The notes beneath the pieces are model-generated. The model was not told where the DNA came from. It ran no database searches and saw nothing but the letters and a program-made list of their open reading frames with translations. Source: a virus (taxonomy: Duplodnaviria > Caudoviricetes). Taken from it: a DNA stretch of 64,000 nt. The stretch is from IMG/VR virus record IMGVR_UViG_3300031994_000062, positions 21,124-85,123 of that record; one strand, given 5' to 3'. Shown piece by piece: positions 6,001-44,803 of the stretch. The stretch's first letter is position 1. Each line of letters begins with the position of its first letter. Both the position numbers and the translations under genes were made by a program.

Positions 6001-7625
6001 TAAGTTATTGCCAGAGATTCCTTTTGAGATTTATCAATATCTTTCGGATTCCAATATGGAACTTCTGTTGCTCCATACGTTTTTTTTATTAAATCATTAA
6101 TACTTAAATTATATGGTTCAATCTTTTTTTTCAAAGTATCGGAAATACCAGGTTTGATATTTTCAGCAATAACATCTTGAATTTCATTTGAAATTTTCGA
6201 AGGTGTAGCACCGGAAGATCCACTACCCATCTTGATATTATTAGGATCAACCTCGACGCCAATCTTAACATTCTGACCTTCTAAAGCATTCTGAATCTTA
6301 CCAACAAATCCGCCAACATCATCTGCTTTAGGCTCAATAGGAATATCAAGTGGTTTATCAACATGTATGGCTTCAGAAATTTTACTTTGAAGTTCCGTAA
6401 CTTTACCTTGGGCGTCAGAAAGCTTGCTCACTGCTTCTGTTAATGATTCGACGAATTTATTAATTTCTTCAGTGTTGAAACCGCCACTTCCACCAGCGCC
6501 TTCTTTGTCGGCTTCTGCTGCTAATTTTGCAGCTTCTGCTTCAGCTTTTTTTGCAGCCATACGATCTTCGTTGACTTTAGCAGTATCATAATCTCTTTGT
6601 AATCTTTGTCTTTGTTGACGCGCCGCCTCAAGTTTGCCTATTGGAGTATTCTCGTCTCCAAGAGATTTCATCGTTTGAAGATTACCGCTTATAACATCAA
6701 CATTTTTCATTGTTGTTAATTTTCTTACAATATCATAATACTGTTGCAAATTAGATACTAATTTGGTTATCTGTTCAACGTTGCCTTTTGCGTTTTTACT
6801 GTCATATTTAATCTCAATTGGCTTATTGAATTGAATGTCGCTCAATTTTCCGCCAAGCTTGGTATATGTATCCAAATTCTTAAAGAACTTGTCATCAAAC
6901 ATTAAATCTCGATTGGTAGCTGCGGCTTCGGCGGCTTCTGCGGCCTTTTTGCTTGTAAGATATTTATAAGATTTTTCATAATCTTTAGCTACCTTACCAA
7001 GACCACCTTTTTTACTATCTAAGAGTTGCGCATCTAAATTGGTTATTTCCTTCATAATATCTTCTGAAGGAGCCAATTTGATCCCAGATATATCAATTAA
7101 AGTATCTCGAATTTGAGTTAAAGTAGTTTTTAATTCTTCGAAAGATTGCACATCAATCTTGGTGTCGACCATTGCTGCCATAGCTTTAGTAACCGCATCA
7201 ACATTATCGTTAATGTTCCTTAATTCGTCTCCGGTTACTCTTAACCCCATAATATCTTTGCCTTCATCCGTTTTCCCTATTTGTTGCGTAACTTGAAGTA
7301 AATTATTTCTTAAAAATTGAACCCTATCTGCCGCCTTTTGCAGACTTGTTTGCATATCATCGAGTTCTTGAACCTGACCATTTATAACTCCTTTGCCAGA
7401 TCCAAATACTTTCTTAAAGTCGAGTCCTTTAAGATTTTTATTCATACCAATCAAATAATTATCTAATTCATTGAACAACCCTTGTATTTGCTTTTTATCT
7501 ATGCCAATATCAATTGTATACTGTTTGCCTTCGATAGCTTCCTTAGTTTCTCTTTCAGCTTCCTTAGTATCTGCATGGACTTTGGCAGTGACGTCCATTT
7601 CAATACTTTTTTTTAAATCTGCCAT
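1..7625 (-). CDS. Tail tape measure protein, 3'-truncated by window edge (>2540 aa)
   Basis: ATG at 7625 with RBS AAGGTGGTG, starting MADLKKSIEMDVTAK. Absent from the ORF track, consistent with no in-window stop; segments I translated are open. TP901-type TMP core at about 2200-2800 (LQQSTADFLRLGESFDEAQKSAE...ISTDQLATGL...GAGLRTISLRMAG). Downstream of the tail genes. Confidence 0.9.
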   Translation of the reverse strand, partial: MADLKKSIEMDVTAKVHADTKEAERETKEAIEGKQYTIDIGIDKKQIQGLFNELDNYLIGMNKNLKGLDFKKVFGSGKGVINGQVQELDDMQTSLQKAADRVQFLRNNLLQVTQQIGKTDEGKDIMGLRVTGDELRNINDNVDAVTKAMAAMVDTKIDVQSFEELKTTLTQIRDTLIDISGIKLAPSEDIMKEITNLDAQLLDSKKGGLGKVAKDYEKSYKYLTSKKAAEAAEAAATNRDLMFDDKFFKNLDTYTKLGGKLSDIQFNKPIEIKYDSKNAKGNVEQITKLVSNLQQYYDIVRKLTTMKNVDVISGNLQTMKSLGDENTPIGKLEAARQQRQRLQRDYDTAKVNEDRMAAKKAEAEAAKLAAEADKEGAGGSGGFNTEEINKFVESLTEAVSKLSDAQGKVTELQSKISEAIHVDKPLDIPIEPKADDVGGFVGKIQNALEGQNVKIGVEVDPNNIKMGSGSSGATPSKISNEIQDVIAENIKPGISDTLKKKIEPYNLSINDLIKKTYGATEVPYWNPKDIDKSQKESLAITYQRLKGIYKSFGVAESELKDQFAIDNAWDSIQKLKLGSARGKNITEILNGLKQQDQIFTAKDLSNAQRFNVTLDECIEKIRAYHNEQISSGSYPDLFSTQEAQMYMQQALLLSGDKETLDRAMKKSGLNLGFKDTKDFIDSHWVPRDSDLKTLNILKSGIMRNIEILPNYDDNYNISGYKAYKKGTIEEVDINDILNNRAQNSIKSVSDNANSVSGKGNFEIPVTFKPAEGSSSSLISQVQSEAEGQSIHLNVEPIEGAGADFVSKIQSEIGEQKVQIGFKPLETDADAFISSIQSSLTGKEVELTVKGVNDESEKTENKPAGGGKPEDPNKKGRGEGEGRGNKYRGMTKDVFLENYDLSQYNDLFNDVGLGDFKKLISFGEDGDAVVAFNEGLAETIVRFEDLVEVSDKLKKGTFNKDDFKNSYTQIDKDAVKEAERQEREREKAQERQQKAQERQQKENKRLQEQAIKDKERQNDAEAKEAQRIVREEAAAKEAERQRLIKEDQEMQKYQIQRAGQRIKEEDKLKEQQRKDQEQQQLKSEAAINKTASELSKANFKETMADYKAGLDAILKGQEVSGVQTDVMKQIREAYGTAKQTRSYLNPENTGDRELVNSVERVSNAALRSTVGKERTDLQKFTDVDSSKIAGFADKLKDLKGYVDQLQGMTIDWSDEKQIADLQKLLELIKLTKSELSDMQKASNISENAQKQADAKLLRQQEQEQAKAARDAEKQRADQQAEYEKLFNQSSIRDYFSKNKIIEGLGTFEGVKFDGNTAVLSFFNELDGKVTQTTVKVKDLDAAIQSVERGNFAEYAQTLNPVTKDVQLTKQQNEDLKNARAGYAAQLSGKEMTPVQTSALDNIVQAYQRIVEAGDQATAADRQFKAQIESMPQLAYQDFMKTQVDQLNNLNAKKGMFDTYYAEVEKIREAINNLNNTTFDPNDEKQKADIQELLNMYTELENRVKSGEFTPASEKSISALQTRFATIKEFNSKAARSGAFKDQFNNLGAQIGDLNTKNSVKDVNELSNQLNVLRGNLTAAGKTGMSFFDTWKQRMGSLGAYLASFASFYRIIGVIKDTANEVRQFDTALTEMRKVSDESVQSLRNFQEVSFDLASNIGTTALQLQQSTADFLRLGESFDEAQKSAESANILMNVSEFSSIDEATESLISMSAAYDDLEKIDIVDKLNLIGNNFSISTDQLATGLKDSAAALSTAGNDINESIALITAGNAITQNASKTGAGLRTISLRMAGTEAAKKELEDIGEDTTDFVVQTKSKIDEQLRQFTAVGSNDYKGVSMLSDDGTYKSTYQVLQEIADIYDEIIESDKKFGTNKANGLLELIAGKTRANIAGSILQNPEILRSAYEQVQNAEGSAMEENEKYLDSIDGKISQLQTRISELQTSVFTSDMFKGLIEGATEFLELLNNIIDTIGLFPTLAGAGGLVGLTSAIPYIANAGANDFAIQTLRSKLQNNKFDTLDEVNTFALDHNLNQKNVENLINETGWKELSARTAEAAASTERMATAATLSGTAMNETAMSGQAVQEAMAGTTAEAAMLAGTEGTVASEATLAAGAQTETAAATGTAAGEAEVLSGAEATAATAAEALSSETELLAGSTAAAALEAEEVATATGVAATNAERLAAGYADAAGAAAEASFTSELNAKQSAFTAANNGVLLGSITGSNANSGVVKLADAADDLEEFAGTTGAAALQMEGIEAAAGGVAAGTAAANTGFSRLLETVKKIGSFLFKWKFAIGGIAALLAAISVAKWYEKDYDRKSEKFDEDNEKYSKDLTELDKTDKKIQDINSRIDEINSKDKLTFTDKAELANLEAQKRELEDMRNIQQELVDSEKKRASDSALKALNSDKGTVDYTKSGLPAGVYDPTKKVYGKSKLVEGQLNNLKALKEAQEELDEAQKAYDEDEKKGKIRPEVQKRYDNAKKRVDDITDALTKGSTEMAKYKDTLDLSDDKAADAYHQIESAIQQTSNALSDTKDPTDLMRKNIESA

Positions 7626-16080: not shown

Positions 16081-16385
16081 TATCAACAGTTAATTTATAA
16101 ATAATTTTCTTATGCTTTCACATAAGTACAGACTATATCATCACCATATCTAAAAAGATTTAGGTGTCCTCCACAGGATCCACTTGGATCGCTTAGTCGT
16201 TGAACCTTTCCCTATTCGGGACTTGGCTGCTGATTGTCCAATCTTTATAATTTTCGACATTCACGTTTGAGCATTTCATCTCTGCGTTGTAGTTTATAAA
16301 GCTCTAAGGAGTTTCCAGCAATTCAAAGGATTCATTTGCATAATTTCTTATTGCAACGGACAATTCTAACTAAATAGTTAGTTTC

Positions 16386-31167: not shown

Positions 31168-31192
31168 TTTAACGCCTCCTTTTATTTTATTA

Positions 31193-31275
31193 CGCCAATA
31201 CCATGATTCGAACGTGGACAACTCGAAAGTTGGACAGATTAGCAATCTGCTGAGATACCATTACTCCATATTGGC
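31193..31275 (-). tRNA. tRNA-Ser(GCU)
   Basis: GCCAATA/TATTGGC acceptor, GCAGA-TTGCTAA-TCTGT, long variable arm, TTCGAAT T-loop; one C-A mismatch in T stem; no CCA. Confidence 0.85.
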
Positions 31276-31281
31276 ACATAA

Positions 31282-31366
31282 CGACAAGCGAGGGACTTGA
31301 ACCCCCAGTGCCCGAAGGCATCACCGGTTTTCAAGACCGGCTCCTTACCAATTAGGATAGCTTGCC
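31282..31366 (-). tRNA. tRNA-Ser(UGA)
   Basis: GGCAAGC/GCTTGTC acceptor, CCGGT-CTTGAAA-ACCGG, long variable arm, TTCAAGT; no CCA. Confidence 0.9.
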
Positions 31367-31372
31367 TAATAA

Positions 31373-31445
31373 AGCCCCAGGTAAGACTTGAACTTACAAC
31401 CTGCTGATTACAAATCAGCTGCTCTGCCAATTGAGCTACTGAGGC
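31373..31445 (-). tRNA. tRNA-Thr(UGU)
   Basis: GCCTCAG/CTGGGGC acceptor, GCTGA-TTTGTAA-TCAGC, TTCAAGT; no CCA. Confidence 0.92.
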
Positions 31446-31496
31446 TGAACAGCACTATAAAAACATAGCGCCATCACAAAAGATAAATAAACTATT

Positions 31497-38903: not shown

Positions 38904-39907
38904 TTAATCTTCAAAATATTCTTTTGCAATATCGTATTTTCGTTGCAAAAAAATAGTGGCATCCTTATATAGGAAACCACAAATTTTCTTGATATCATCT
39001 ATCCGTCGATATCGAACTTGATACATTCCTGGAAGATGAGACCTAATATCCACTTTAAAATTATTTTCACCATATGACTCTTTTAAAAGACTGTCAAAGT
39101 CTTGACAAAACTTTTTAGAGTTTTGATATACAGCAATTACTTTATCATGCTTTTTTCTACTGGCTATTGTACCATCGCCATCAACCAAGCCCCTTAAAAA
39201 ATGTTTGATAAGGTGCTTTGGGACTTTTTCTTCAATATTTTTAAACGATTCAGAATTATGAGTTTTATCAGGAACTATATCGAAAACACTTAAATCGTCA
39301 AATATTTGTTTAGAATTACAAGATTCAAACTTAACAAAATCTCCTAATCCTTTATTTGTTTCTATTTGTCGATAGTACAAATCATTTCCACATTTTAATT
39401 CTTCGGCTAATTTTTTAACTATAGCATCGTCTTTTCTTTGCAGTTCAATTGCTAAAAAATAACCACCATTATGAATTCTAACATAACCATCGGTGTAAAT
39501 AAGACCAAAAAATAAGCTTTTGCCTCTGTGTCGATAATGCTAAAATAATCATCAACAAAATTAATATTTTTCTCATCTCTTGGCATTTTGAATGTATTTA
39601 ATGTTAAACCATTTTCTTTAGCTATATTAGATACGGTAGTACAAGTCGAACCTGTTAATCTAGCTATTTCAGAACTATGCACTCCGTCCTTAACCATATT
39701 AATAATTTGTGATATCTTTTCCTCTGAGAGTTTACAATGTTTTACTTTTTTAATTTCGTTGTTGATTAAAAAATTATTTATCGCTGGATACGACATTTCA
39801 AGGTCTCTAGAAATTGCAGATACCGTCATACCGTTTTGAAACATATCAATAATTTTTAATCCTAATTCTTCTGTAAATGGTTTTTTACATCTTATCGGCA
39901 ATTTCAC
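38904..39907 (-). pseudogene. Free-standing LAGLIDADG endonuclease split by a -1 frameshift
   Basis: Two track ORFs join at the T6 run 39507-39512 into AYF(F)GLIYTDGYV; second motif HFLRGLVDGDGTI. No intron core nearby. GTG start overlaps the phoH 3' end. Confidence 0.75.
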
Positions 39908-41126
39908 TAGCTTCACTCCTATAATTATTTTTTAATTTAATACATCCAAATTTCTCATATCCCTTAAATACTTCCATCATCCTACGCATACCCAAATGAT
40001 CAATATTTACATCTGTTTGCTCGATAATGTCGCCTTCATATACCTGTTTACATCCTTCTTTACAACGTTGAATTATCGTCTTGAGCGTATAAACATCAAG
40101 ATTCTGAGCTTCGCTTACTATGACCATAGAGTCTGATTCAAACTCGACGCCTCTAATATTTGCCGTTGGTATAATATCGATCTTTCCGTCCTCAATTAAT
40201 CGTTGAACTTCGATGAGATCGCCGAATTTTGAAGCAAGAATATTTCCGATAGATGCAGAATATAAAAGCTTAGTTGTATGATCACCTTTTTCATAGCCTA
40301 AAGTCCTGGCATGTTTTAAAGGTTCAAAAGAATATACAAAATAACACTTCTTAATTTTACTTTTCTCTAATTTACTCATAAAATAAGAAAGCGGAAGAGT
40401 AGTCTTTCCGGATCCGGCTCTCCCAAACAATAAAGTGATATCATTTTTGTCAATACTATCCATAGCACATTGCTGTATCTGGTCAAGAGGTTTTACTTTG
40501 CCAAAATACCTTGACTGAAATGCAGTATATACAACCTTGGTATACTCACCATCGCCCCACTTATATGTGTCGATAATTTCACCGTTGTTATTTTTCAAGA
40601 TAATATATTCATTTCTGACCATGTTATAAATATTCTTGTCGAGATTAGAATAAAAATAAGCCATTTCATCATCGTTCATAGATATAACTCTATATCCAGT
40701 ATACTCATCAATATCGGCAAAATCTAAGTCCTTTGTACCGATGGTATTTAGACCAAATATCTTTCTGGCAATATGCTTGAGATTTAAATCATTAGATACA
40801 AATAAAATAGAAATCTGATGTAATTCCTGATAATAATAAGCAGAAGCAACTATAATATTGTCCGGTCCTGGCTCTAATAGCTTCTGTTCTTTTATATATG
40901 TAAGAAGGTCAGTATTATATCCTACGACCTCATATTTATCTTCATTCTCATCGAGAAGTCTTGATATCTGACGAGCCTTATATTTCGTGGCTTCGTCTTT
41001 TCTATATGCAGTTTTTATATCTTCAATTTCCTGCAGCGTCATCTGAGAAATTAAAAAATCTTCATCAAACGCGCGACTTTGAAGATCCAATATTGAGTTG
41101 GTATCGTAAAATTTACGACAATCCAT
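39885..41126 (-). CDS. phoH: PhoH-family protein (PIN + ATPase)
   Basis: PIN FYDTNSIL; Walker A GRAGSGKTT; IRGVEF; VSEAQN; EGDIIEQTD. Confidence 0.88.
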   Translation of the reverse strand: MDCRKFYDTNSILDLQSRAFDEDFLISQMTLQEIEDIKTAYRKDEATKYKARQISRLLDENEDKYEVVGYNTDLLTYIKEQKLLEPGPDNIIVASAYYYQELHQISILFVSNDLNLKHIARKIFGLNTIGTKDLDFADIDEYTGYRVISMNDDEMAYFYSNLDKNIYNMVRNEYIILKNNNGEIIDTYKWGDGEYTKVVYTAFQSRYFGKVKPLDQIQQCAMDSIDKNDITLLFGRAGSGKTTLPLSYFMSKLEKSKIKKCYFVYSFEPLKHARTLGYEKGDHTTKLLYSASIGNILASKFGDLIEVQRLIEDGKIDIIPTANIRGVEFESDSMVIVSEAQNLDVYTLKTIIQRCKEGCKQVYEGDIIEQTDVNIDHLGMRRMMEVFKGYEKFGCIKLKNNYRSEASEIADKM

Positions 41127-41130
41127 AAGC

Positions 41131-41310
41131 TTAATCCTCCTTAACTATGATGTCTTCTCTATACTTATAAAGCTTTTTGAGAGCACGAGGATTTTCGGTA
41201 AGATAATACCGCTTGGATTTAGATTTATGTGTTTGTGAACTAACATGAACATATTTTCCCATTTTATTTTCTCGCAAATAGTCAGCTTCTCGTCTTGCAA
41301 TTAAAATCAT
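41131..41310 (-). CDS. Small basic hypothetical protein (59 aa; below track cutoff)
   Basis: MILIARREADYLRE...KRYYLTENPRALKKLYKYRE; RBS present. Confidence 0.65.
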   Translation of the reverse strand: MILIARREADYLRENKMGKYVHVSSQTHKSKSKRYYLTENPRALKKLYKYREDIIVKED

Positions 41311-41344
41311 ACTTTCACTACTTTCTTTAATTTATTTTTTTTAA

Positions 41345-42280
41345 ACAAAAAAGGGGCATATGCCCCTATATAAAAGTTCAAAAAAGATCACCCCTGATCC
41401 TTGAACGAATTTCCCGACACAGAGTCGAACTGTGTTTCTTCCTATATAAATAGGACCACGCAGGAAGTAGGAGAGAAGAGTAGTAATCTACTCCTCGGTA
41501 CTCCTTTTAATCCTTTGCTAACGCTGAGATTATGCGTTTCGCAGAAAAAACTTTACGAGCATTATGAGTTCTCTCGTTATCCACTTACTGCCGTTTCCGC
41601 ACAATAAGTATTCTCTCATGGCTGCCTTTTTTATAGTGTGGCGATTCACTATTTCTACAAAGCTACTCTACCTTCCCTATTCCGTTAACGCTGCCGCGCT
41701 ATAAATTCCCGCTAAGAAAACCGTGCAAGGTCCAATAAACTTATCAGAGTCTTGCGAGACTCCTCAAAGACACCATTACATTGCTGCTGGTGTATTAAGC
41801 CACTTTCACTTTGCATAGGCACAGACTTTCGCTTTAATAATTTGATCATCTGTCTATTGTAAATAAACCCTGTATCCAATGGTTCTTTTTATTTATAATA
41901 TGTTTATATACATCCTTTGATTACGTGCTGCGCCAGTGGCTTCGTAAACTTTTGATCTACAAAATACCACACGCAACCATGCTTTCGGCCCGTTTGCCTA
42001 CTAACGTCTCATAAGCTAATGGGAAATCCCACTCACTTAATCAATGGATACCGCCCTCGCGCAACGTACACTTGGACTGTGTGCATCCTCCTGATTCACC
42101 TTCGCATATTCGTAAGTTTGCATGAGCTATCCAGATTGCGGTCCGGAAACCTTCTCTCAGCACTTGCCGTTGATCCGGCTTATTGCTCCATACTTCATAT
42201 GTTATATCCGCGCGGGATTTATATACCAGCACGAATCGCCGCCTTTTGAGCGACAGGCATGTCAGTTCTGCTTGAATTGA
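41345..42280 (-). ncRNA. Candidate large structured ncRNA (about 930 nt; GOLLD/ROOL size class)
   Basis: No credible ORF; higher GC than flanks; many hairpins with G-U pairs and GNRA loops; bracketed by a promoter-like site and a terminator. Confidence 0.6.
41347..41367 (-). terminator. Intrinsic terminator closing the non-coding region
   Basis: AGGGGCATATGCCCCT palindrome followed by a T run. Confidence 0.75.
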
Positions 42281-42282
42281 CC

Positions 42283-42310
42283 ATTATACCTACAATGGCG
42301 ACAAATACAA
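42283..42310 (-). promoter_or_regulatory. SigA-like promoter
   Basis: TTGTAT-16 nt-TATAAT pointing into the ncRNA candidate. Confidence 0.45.
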
Positions 42311-42397
42311 GATGTAAATATTTGCCTTTACGTAAGTCACCCTACGTTATCTGTGTCAAGCCACATTGCATAGATTTAACGTCCCTATGCAGACGAT

Positions 42398-42468
42398 TGC
42401 TACGCCCAGGTACTGCCCCTGGTTAAGACCGGCTTATGAGGCCAGTTAAGATCTTACCTTCCGCCAGC
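42398..42468 (-). tRNA. Degenerate tRNA-like gene, CAU anticodon (probable pseudo-tRNA)
   Basis: CTGGC-CTCATAA-GCCGG anticodon arm; CCAGG-GGCAGTA-CCTGG T-arm with atypical loop; imperfect acceptor stem. Confidence 0.45.
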
Positions 42469-42603
42469 TATGTTATTTATACTCGCCCCCTCACCAGGTA
42501 GAATAGAGGAGGTAACGGTGCGGCAAGAGAGCGAGTTTCTAAAGGAGTGTGAGTTTTATGATCTCACTTCGAGTTGATTATATGATTAATATAAACGGCT
42601 AAT

Positions 42604-42876
42604 TTATCTTACTAATTCTTTGAAGGAATTAGCAAACTTGCACTTCGGTGCATGTTTAGCCGGGACTGTAATAGCTTCACCAGTCTGAGGATTCCTGGAC
42701 TGACGTTCTGCCATGTACTTTCTACTCAGCTTAACACCATCGATAACCTGAATGTCATCGTCGTTATTCAGTGCTTCAATAACGATTTCACGGATGGCAC
42801 CAACAACAACCTTGGTGTCCTTCTGTGTAAATCCTGTTTTTTCTGCAATTTTCTTAATAAAATCTGCTTTCTTCAT
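42604..42876 (-). CDS. hup: HU family DNA-binding protein
   Basis: MKKADFIKKIAEKTG...RNPQTGEAITVPAK..PKCKFANSFKELV. Confidence 0.92.
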   Translation of the reverse strand: MKKADFIKKIAEKTGFTQKDTKVVVGAIREIVIEALNNDDDIQVIDGVKLSRKYMAERQSRNPQTGEAITVPAKHAPKCKFANSFKELVR

Positions 42877-43008
42877 TTCTATTTCTCCTTTTCTTCAATC
42901 ATTTTTTAAGTTTGAGCAGCTGCGTTTTCACTCACATAAACAAAATTCAATAAATTCGTAAAAGTGAATAAATTATTAGCTTTTGAAAAGGTCGAAGAAA
43001 ATTCAGTA

Positions 43009-43931: not shown

Positions 43932-44803
43932 CAATTCATAATTGTATAGGCTCTTTATCCTATACCCTCAAGTCACCTTGAGATTGGACTATATCTTTAC
44001 CATAGCTTTCGCCTTAGGTATCTGGCGCTCGTGTCGGGATTATTGGTATCCATCCTCACCCATTAGTCTCTGAAGTTTCTTGTCTACTTTTGCTGGAATT
44101 CGACAAGCTTACCTGCTGATTGAGTTAATTTAATTGTTTAATCTATATGTTTCCAAGTTTTTCTGTGACAAATATTTGCATATGTAGAATGTAAGTTTTT
44201 GTAATCTTTAGCGTGAATCATTTCTGGATGATCAAGTCTTAAAATATCGGCTATTTTCATACCTTCGTCGTATTTTCTTCTAATTTCTCTGACTTCCTCT
44301 TCTGTAAAATTAGCCCTTCCATTATTTACTCCTCGCGACGATTCACAAACCACTTCATAATTATTGTCTACAGTATATTGAATATTTTCGGCATGAGTGA
44401 TCCATTCTAAATTGTCAGCGTCATAATTCATCCTATTAAAATCTTTATGATTTACTTCGGCACCTTCGAAATATCCCGGTACCCAAGCATGTGCGACGTA
44501 CAAATGTACTGGAACTCCGCCACCAAAACAAGGATATCCGTCAGAATTGATATGTATCGTAGCTGGTTGAACTCTTCTTATTGGATTAAACGCTGAACCA
44601 TCTTTCGCAACATATTTTCCGCGACCTCTAAGTTCTACATATCTATATACCTTAGGCTCATATTTTTTGCCATCTTCATTAATAATAATTTCATCTTCAA
44701 ATTTTCTTTCTTCCATAGTTCGCCTTTCTTTCCTTATAACTTTCCCAGCAATTCACCAGATATTTTTTGAACTGAGTTTCCTCAGAACCGGGCCGGTATA
44801 TTA
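43932..44803 (-). mobile_element. Group I intron 4 (872 nt) with HNH ORF between P and Q
   Basis: P GAATTGCTGGGAA, Q AATCAGCAGG, R TCAGAGACTA, S GATATAGTCC. P1 UGGGU/GCCCG and P10 CGG/CCG support the junction GGG T|TAATA...AATTG|CG GAT. Confidence 0.92.
44138..44716 (-). CDS. Intron-encoded HNH homing endonuclease
   Basis: VHLYVAHAW...EVNHKDFNRMNYDADNLEWITHAEN. Confidence 0.88.
   Translation of the reverse strand: MEERKFEDEIIINEDGKKYEPKVYRYVELRGRGKYVAKDGSAFNPIRRVQPATIHINSDGYPCFGGGVPVHLYVAHAWVPGYFEGAEVNHKDFNRMNYDADNLEWITHAENIQYTVDNNYEVVCESSRGVNNGRANFTEEEVREIRRKYDEGMKIADILRLDHPEMIHAKDYKNLHSTYANICHRKTWKHID

Follow-up and report, generated by a model that had tools for sequence, protein, structure and literature searches.

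A divergent, intact GOLLD RNA flanked by two non-decoding tRNA-shaped elements in a large uncultured phage

The window analysed here, a stretch of 64,000 nucleotides of phage DNA, belongs to an 85-kb IMG/VR virus contig with a completeness estimate of 49%. It contains an ORF-poor gap of 1293 nt (41311-42603), bounded by an HU gene and a 59-aa ORF, with minus-strand genes on both sides. An earlier interpretation of the same DNA, made by inspection and referred to here as the sequence-only reading, had described about 1 kb without any credible ORF at this location. That description was correct, and the gap is larger than had been claimed. The longest ORFs within it encode 76, 68 and 63 aa, several fall in the range of 52-76 aa, and no internal ORF of the gap matched a Pfam or PHROG family. 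The gap also has the raised GC content that had been reported, with values of 0.40-0.45 as compared with 0.28-0.36 in the flanks. On its downstream side, the 59-aa ORF is followed by a gene for a PhoH2-type protein whose best phage matches, which are ~34% identical, occur in large Bacillus, Geobacillus and Enterococcus phages, a likeness that hints at a Firmicutes host.

Two group I intron matches (RF00028) were seen elsewhere in the window, both on the minus strand: 16109-16381, with 87.9 bits against a cut-off of 50, and 43966-44187, with 50.9 bits against the same cut-off. The second overlaps the end of a 192-aa ORF (44138-44716, minus strand) that carries an HNH_3 endonuclease domain (Pfam E 1.2e-06), and from this arrangement the pair looks like a mobile intron with its homing endonuclease. 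The features in and around the gap, in minus-strand order, are as follows.

42604-42876, minus strand: gene for an HU-type DNA-binding protein, the upstream neighbour (Pfam Bac_DNA_binding, E 8.8e-23)
42476-42481, minus strand: TATAAA box, a putative promoter element with the 5′ tRNA-like element 7 nt downstream, with no good -35 and absent from the sigma-70 scan
42399-42468, minus strand: tRNA-Met-like cloverleaf with a bulged acceptor stem (minimum-energy fold, four arms)
41980-42366, minus strand: GOLLD 5′ domain, 387 nt, variable and outside the Rfam model, aligning with relatives from 42366 on
42283-42310, minus strand: TTGTAT-16-TATAAT motif (TTGTAT at 42305-42310, TATAAT at 42283-42288), inside the 5′ domain
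41521-41979, minus strand: conserved GOLLD 3′ domain (matches Rfam RF02032 over its full length, positions 1-416 of 416, without truncation)
41836-41916, minus strand: AU-rich variable linker in the 3′ domain, ~81 nt with approximate limits (an unpaired, low-confidence stretch of the cmscan alignment)
41475-41496, minus strand: 9-bp hairpin with an AUUA loop, separating the 3′ tRNA-like element from the GOLLD end (sequence, and fold of 41400-41520)
41411-41466, minus strand: anticodon-less tRNA-like element, an acceptor/T-arm minihelix (minimum-energy fold)
41380-41399, minus strand: weak terminator-like hairpin, GAUCA-GGGG-UGAUC and then U6 (read from the sequence; below the GC-pair threshold of the terminator scan)
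41343-41367, minus strand: strong intrinsic terminator, AGGGGCAUAUGCCCCU and a U-run (terminator scan: hairpin 41352-41367 with 6 pairs, 5 of them G-C, then a T-run)
41131-41310: 59-aa ORF between the gap and the PhoH2-type gene
39885-41126, minus strand: PhoH2-type gene with PIN nuclease and PhoH ATPase domains, the downstream neighbour (Pfam PhoH E 1.8e-28, PIN_4 E 2.3e-10)

The gap encodes a full-length GOLLD RNA, a divergent, intact member of a known family. When the whole window was searched with cmscan against Rfam 15, the GOLLD model RF02032 was matched with 205.4 bits (gathering score 150, E 1.4e-56), and the same match was recovered on the sub-region and on the entire virus record. 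Under permissive filters, with both strands of 41100-42950 searched, GOLLD was the only family found at E≤1, so that ROOL, OLE and raiA are excluded. The sequence-only reading had proposed a GOLLD/ROOL-class RNA or a new family, and had asked for an Rfam search in which a strong match would make the RNA known rather than novel. The search returned such a match: the GOLLD half of the proposal stands, while ROOL and the new family, neither of which is represented by a match at E≤1, fall away. A match that spans the entire model and exceeds its cut-off identifies the RNA as known, and not as a new kind.

The architecture of the 3′ domain is present in the window, with an opening hairpin, a long-range helix that encloses hairpins and a loop of the AUCUCA type, and few of its pairs are non-standard. 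By hand count on the cmscan alignment, 9 of the 10 pairs in the long-range helix are kept, and the CGCAA hairpin, the GAAA-capped hairpin and the terminal AUCUCA loop all align to the GOLLD consensus. The four minus-strand helices pointed out before this search all lie where they had been placed; those at 41582-41610, 41747-41762 and 41770-41793 coincide with consensus helices of the Rfam model, and the fourth, at 41475-41496, lies 3′ of it. Relative to RF02032 the AU-rich linker carries a 26-nt insertion, and ARAGORN detected no embedded tRNA within it (41836-41916).

RF02032 covers only the conserved 3′ domain. The alignment of MT835469, a related phage record, with the window spans 42366 to 41521, and 13 sequences (10 distinct) were available for an alignment of the 5′ domain that takes in, at its 3′ end, the first hairpin of the 3′ domain. 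The consensus fold obtained with RNAalifold comprises 125 pairs, in which 98.2% of cells are paired. Changes on both sides were found in 47 of the 125 pairs, compared with 12.7±2.8 in column shuffles and 3-12 in slid-partner controls; the first hairpin of the 3′ domain contributes to these counts, and the contrast with the controls is inflated somewhat because the fold was derived from the same alignment, but the margin is still large. Covariation among homologues, without which the proposal of a structured RNA was to have been abandoned, is thus seen in the 5′ domain. Indels among the homologues have lengths that are not multiples of three.

In the first helix of this fold, GCUUGA (42356-42361) pairs with UCAAGC (42270-42275), which places the beginning of the structured RNA at ~42366 and gives a core GOLLD of ~846 nt (41521-42366). 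The 5′ limit of 42280 that had been assigned by inspection is therefore at least 86 nt short, since the conserved, covarying 5′ domain runs to ~42366. A core of ~846 nt agrees with solved GOLLD examples, which measure 700-833 nt (PMC12286853, PMC12990946). On the minus strand, the 846-nt core gives a better fold than shuffled sequences (z -2.9), an advantage that the plus strand does not share (z -0.2). The locus holds one two-domain GOLLD and not a set of separate RNAs; in it a lineage-specific 5′ domain of ~390 nt is joined to a universally conserved 3′ domain of ~460 nt.

MT835469, a 176-kb phage from human faeces, was the only related record in the phage collection, and further loci were obtained by pattern scans of viral and metagenome contigs. 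Together these comprise 33 distinct GOLLD sequences, 32 of the window's subtype plus the locus L167, which are 64-72% identical to the window; every related locus that was run against Rfam passed the GOLLD cut-off, with 172-200 bits. A degenerate pattern for the subtype retrieved 30 metagenome loci, none of them more than ~72% identical to the window. A window-specific two-block pattern had no match in metagenome contigs, and a pattern for the T-arm of the 3′ tRNA-like element had none in viral contigs. The anticodon-arm pattern recovered ordinary tRNA-Met genes only, plus L167, which also holds a GOLLD of another subtype, and a family-wide pattern for the 3′ domain gave mostly chance matches and a single new GOLLD, L061.

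Two of these loci contain other RNAs of note. In L167, the GOLLD of the different subtype (6432-6889, minus strand, 200.3 bits) lies within a tRNA array of at least 27 genes, and a tRNA match (44.9 bits, 6759-6821) falls within its 3′ domain. This is probably the known arrangement in which a tRNA is embedded in the variable linker. In L025, a match to abiF RNA (RF03085, 7222-7258, plus strand; 42.6 bits against a cut-off of 37) was seen ~3 kb downstream of the GOLLD.

The window and MT835469 have entirely different protein genes around GOLLD, those of MT835469 being unrelated to HU, the 59-aa ORF and PhoH2. The collection of syntenic HU-PhoH regions from related phages, which had been suggested as a route to homologues, was unusable for this reason. 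The tRNAs beside GOLLD behave otherwise. In MT835469 the order is tRNA-Met(CAU), 52 nt, GOLLD, 12 nt, tRNA-Arg. At most of the 33 loci a tRNA-Met(CAU), in some cases in a sub-threshold form accepted by ARAGORN only at 90% thresholds, ends 382-403 nt before the 3′ domain, and a tRNA (Arg, Thr, Ile or degenerate Arg) follows 9-30 nt after the GOLLD end. The exceptions are L200, which has a tRNA-Tyr(GUA) in place of tRNA-Met, four loci with no call, and L167 with its other subtype. As the protein neighbours differ between the window and MT835469, the conserved unit is a tRNA-GOLLD-tRNA cassette and not the HU-PhoH neighbourhood.

The tRNAs of the cassette vary in quality among the relatives. At the upstream site the Rfam tRNA score is 60.9 bits in L002 and L024, 37.4 in L025 and below the cut-off in L061, and the window gives no match at E≤10; the CAU loop is retained in nearly all lineages that keep the upstream element. 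In L211 and L222, whose 3′ domains match well, a deletion that reaches into the first GOLLD helix starts at the T-loop of the upstream tRNA, and because the tRNA-Met has been cut in these loci, an intact upstream tRNA shape may be dispensable. On the 3′ side, the L024-type loci (L024 and L032) have a degenerate tRNA with an 8-nt anticodon loop, and in L061 a small hairpin separates the next tRNA from the GOLLD end.

What is unusual about the window is limited to these two neighbouring tRNA positions, both of which hold non-decoding tRNA shapes. A tRNA-like gene had been placed next to the RNA by the sequence-only reading. A cloverleaf with a CAU loop is present at 42399-42468, but it does not qualify as a tRNA gene: it was called neither by ARAGORN, even at 70% thresholds, nor by the Rfam tRNA model at E≤10. 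It has a 7-nt anticodon loop, CUCAUAA (CAU at 42436-42438), together with an off-consensus T-loop, GGCAGUA, and its four-arm cloverleaf shape was reproduced in 32 of 3000 shuffles (~1%). The element occupies the site at which most relatives have a tRNA-Met(CAU) or its sub-threshold version, and it shares little sequence with the tRNA-Met of these relatives.

The element on the 3′ side, 41411-41466, has an acceptor-like stem of 6 bp and a T-arm, also of 6 bp, whose loop, UUCGACU, is a consensus T-loop; where an anticodon arm would be expected there is a closed hairpin of 6 bp with a loop of 4 nt, and the D arm and the anticodon loop are missing. This acceptor/T-arm shape arose in 110 of 3000 shuffles (~4%). 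The element starts 54 nt past the GOLLD end, compared with 9-30 nt for the downstream tRNAs of relatives. It gave no match to the Rfam tRNA model (RF00005) at E≤10 and no ARAGORN call at default settings, and at 80% thresholds ARAGORN made one doubtful call on the 3′ side, in a different register. Matches to alpha_tmRNA (8.9 bits) and to sRNAs in scans of the flanks were at chance level. All tRNA stems still pair in both flanking elements. Across the window, ARAGORN found no tRNAs besides three in an intact cluster at 31192-31446 (minus strand; Ser-GCU, Ser-UGA and Thr-UGU), 10 kb from GOLLD.

At the 3′ end of the gap, the terminator recognised by inspection was confirmed as a hairpin at 41352-41367 with its U-run, and the terminator at 41343-41367 is the likely 3′ end of the primary transcript. 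The promoter recognised in the same way, TTGTAT-16-TATAAT, did not withstand comparison. The motif exists, but its TATAAT sits in a hairpin of the covarying 5′ domain (alignment columns 136-161) that has one compensatory pair and, in the window only, an insertion of 10 nt. Relatives have no such motif and are missing these 10 nt, and the region upstream of the motif contains the 5′ strand of the first helix as well as three hairpins that covary. A simple sigma-70 scan of the minus strand from 41000 to 43000 found no sigma-70-like site. Since the motif is internal to the covarying fold, a start at this point would drop structured elements, and the scan was negative, we rejected it as the GOLLD promoter.

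Further upstream, the TATAAA box at 42476-42481 is a weak candidate for the -10 element of the primary transcript, and read-through from HU is equally possible. Relatives have a TATA-like box a few to ~18 nt upstream of tRNA-Met, as in the L061 group, where GATATAAT is conserved. The DNA that separates the 5′ tRNA-like element from the stop codon of HU also contains a 16-bp hairpin with G-U pairs (42481-42536, minus strand) and a 24-nt loop containing CCUCCUC. The 134-nt stretch here folds with z -2.6; the hairpin is not followed by a U-run, and relatives have nothing that corresponds to it.

Several other explanations of the locus were weighed against these results. It is improbable that transcription starts at the internal motif, near 42276, and produces an RNA of ~930 nt with a shortened 5′ domain. 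The -10 hexamer is perfect, the spacing is 16 nt, and no better sigma-70-like promoter was found upstream; against this, only 3 of the 6 positions match in the -35, which did not pass the scan, the motif forms part of a structured hairpin and is not shared by relatives, and the resulting RNA would lose the 5′ strand of the first helix along with three hairpins, elements with 3, 6, 4 and 1 pairs showing compensatory changes. We consider it very improbable that the stretch is a non-functional GOLLD remnant or codes for small proteins. The GOLLD score of the window is the highest among all related loci tested and base pairing is maintained throughout, and while ORFs of 52-76 aa do exist, they are without family matches and the region is crossed by non-triplet indels relative to the homologues. 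That the RNA is ROOL, or an undescribed family merely resembling GOLLD, might be argued from its 5′ half, which is outside the Rfam model and leaves half of the RNA without a catalogue match. A variable 5′ domain, however, is a defining trait of GOLLD (PMC12286853), and with the GOLLD model matched end to end, 55 bits over its cut-off, and no other family at E≤1, the probability of this explanation is negligible.

For the two flanking elements, the possibility that both are decayed tRNA pseudogenes of an ancestral tRNA array, without a present role, falls a little short of an even chance. It is consistent with the drop in upstream tRNA scores across lineages (60.9, then 37.4, then below the cut-off, then no match in the window), with the degenerate 3′ tRNA and 8-nt loop of L024-type loci, with the deletion through the upstream tRNA in L211 and L222, and with the intact tRNA genes that the phage has elsewhere (31192-31446). 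A pseudogene that had drifted as far as the 5′ element would nonetheless be expected to lose stems, and the stems of both elements pair, which speaks against plain decay. The rarity of the two shapes in shuffles (~1% for the cloverleaf and ~4% for the 3′ shape) and the CAU loop kept in nearly all element-bearing lineages point in the same direction. We also entertain, as a tentative and rather unlikely alternative, that both elements are tRNA-shaped handles under selection, which would recruit tRNA-processing enzymes of the host to excise GOLLD from a longer RNA, or remain joined to it as adapters or cargo of the cage. If so, the occurrence of a tRNA-Met-type element upstream of GOLLD from marine env-38 to gut phages would signify functional coupling beyond shared ancestry.

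The explanation of the locus as a whole that we favour, and hold with high confidence, is a single minus-strand GOLLD gene within an array-derived cassette, transcribed as a long RNA with possible trimming by tRNA enzymes. Judging from its position in relatives, the gene would be a cassette descended from a tRNA array, in the order tRNA-Met, GOLLD, tRNA, and in the phage of the window both flanking tRNAs would have turned into non-decoding tRNA-shaped elements. The primary transcript would most likely start upstream of the 5′ element, either near 42470 or by read-through from HU, and would end at the tandem terminators at 41343-41399. GOLLD may be freed by the host enzymes RNase P and RNase Z, with cleavage at the tRNA-shaped elements, and by homology it would fold protein-free and self-assemble into a closed multimeric cage. 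That all stems have been kept despite strong sequence divergence favours trimming at these elements. Bacterial RNase P normally reads the T-loop consensus, which the 5′ element (42399-42468) does not have, and this off-consensus T-loop, together with the deletion in L211 and L222, counts against trimming.

GOLLD RNAs are among the largest non-coding RNAs of bacteria and phages, and RNA-only cages larger than the ribosome have recently been shown. The candidate from the window, first taken as a possible new family, turns out to be a catalogued RNA, and it adds a divergent, intact GOLLD from a large uncultured phage in metagenome data (IMG/VR). Two features are defined by the ~33 distinct related sequences, namely a 5′ domain that covaries and a cassette that recurs among them, in which tRNA-Met precedes GOLLD and a second tRNA follows it. 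The most extreme form of this cassette is that of the window: both flanking tRNAs are non-decoding, and GOLLD itself is the best preserved. This combination makes the locus a convenient natural test of the need for tRNA-like neighbours in GOLLD processing or function.

Among known systems, the solved GOLLD RNAs are the closest. The env-38 RNA is 833 nt long and forms a 14-mer cage (PDB 9MEE), and the Streptococcus agalactiae RNA is 700 nt long and forms a 12-mer (PDB 9L0R) (PMC12990946, PMC12286853). GOLLD RNAs have separate 5′ and 3′ domains and form protein-free closed cages with the linker directed inward, and their expression rises in phage lysis (PMC12286853, PMC12990946). The env-38 equivalent of the linker is disordered inside the cage (PMC12286853). 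The RNA of the window resembles these examples in its full 3′-domain match, its structured, variable 5′ domain of ~390 nt, its AU-rich linker, its core of ~846 nt and its phage origin, being located on an IMG/VR virus contig with tRNA-shaped elements on both flanks. All of the defining GOLLD features that can be tested were found; the ROOL model had no match, and neither flanking element was recognised as a tRNA (RF00005). The solved env-38 RNA lies downstream of tRNA-Met (PMC12286853, PMC12990946), and the window's GOLLD is likewise downstream of a tRNA-Met-type element. Compared with other GOLLD RNAs, the window's copy is 64-72% identical to the nearest relatives found and does not lie among intact tRNA genes, the real cluster being 10 kb away.

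ROOL, an octameric cage, shares the phage and near-tRNA niche, the large ornate fold and the capacity to form cages; it differs in its secondary structure, and it has no match in the window at E≤1. In the eukaryotic MALAT1-mascRNA system, a long non-coding RNA has a tRNA-shaped element after it, which could recruit RNase P to generate the 3′ end of that RNA. The tRNA-shaped element 3′ of the window's GOLLD is alike in position, an analogy that serves the trimming hypothesis only. GOLLD genes are found in tRNA arrays, some with embedded tRNAs or pseudo-tRNAs (PMC6582537, PMC12990946), and co-transcription of GOLLD with tRNAs has been proposed (PMC5737381). In GOLLD RNAs with an embedded tRNA (PMC12990946) the tRNA is in the linker, whereas the tRNA-like elements of the window flank the RNA instead. 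The GOLLD RNAs of Mycobacterium tRNA arrays (PMC6582537) are, like the one described here, tied to tRNA genes and degenerate tRNA copies.
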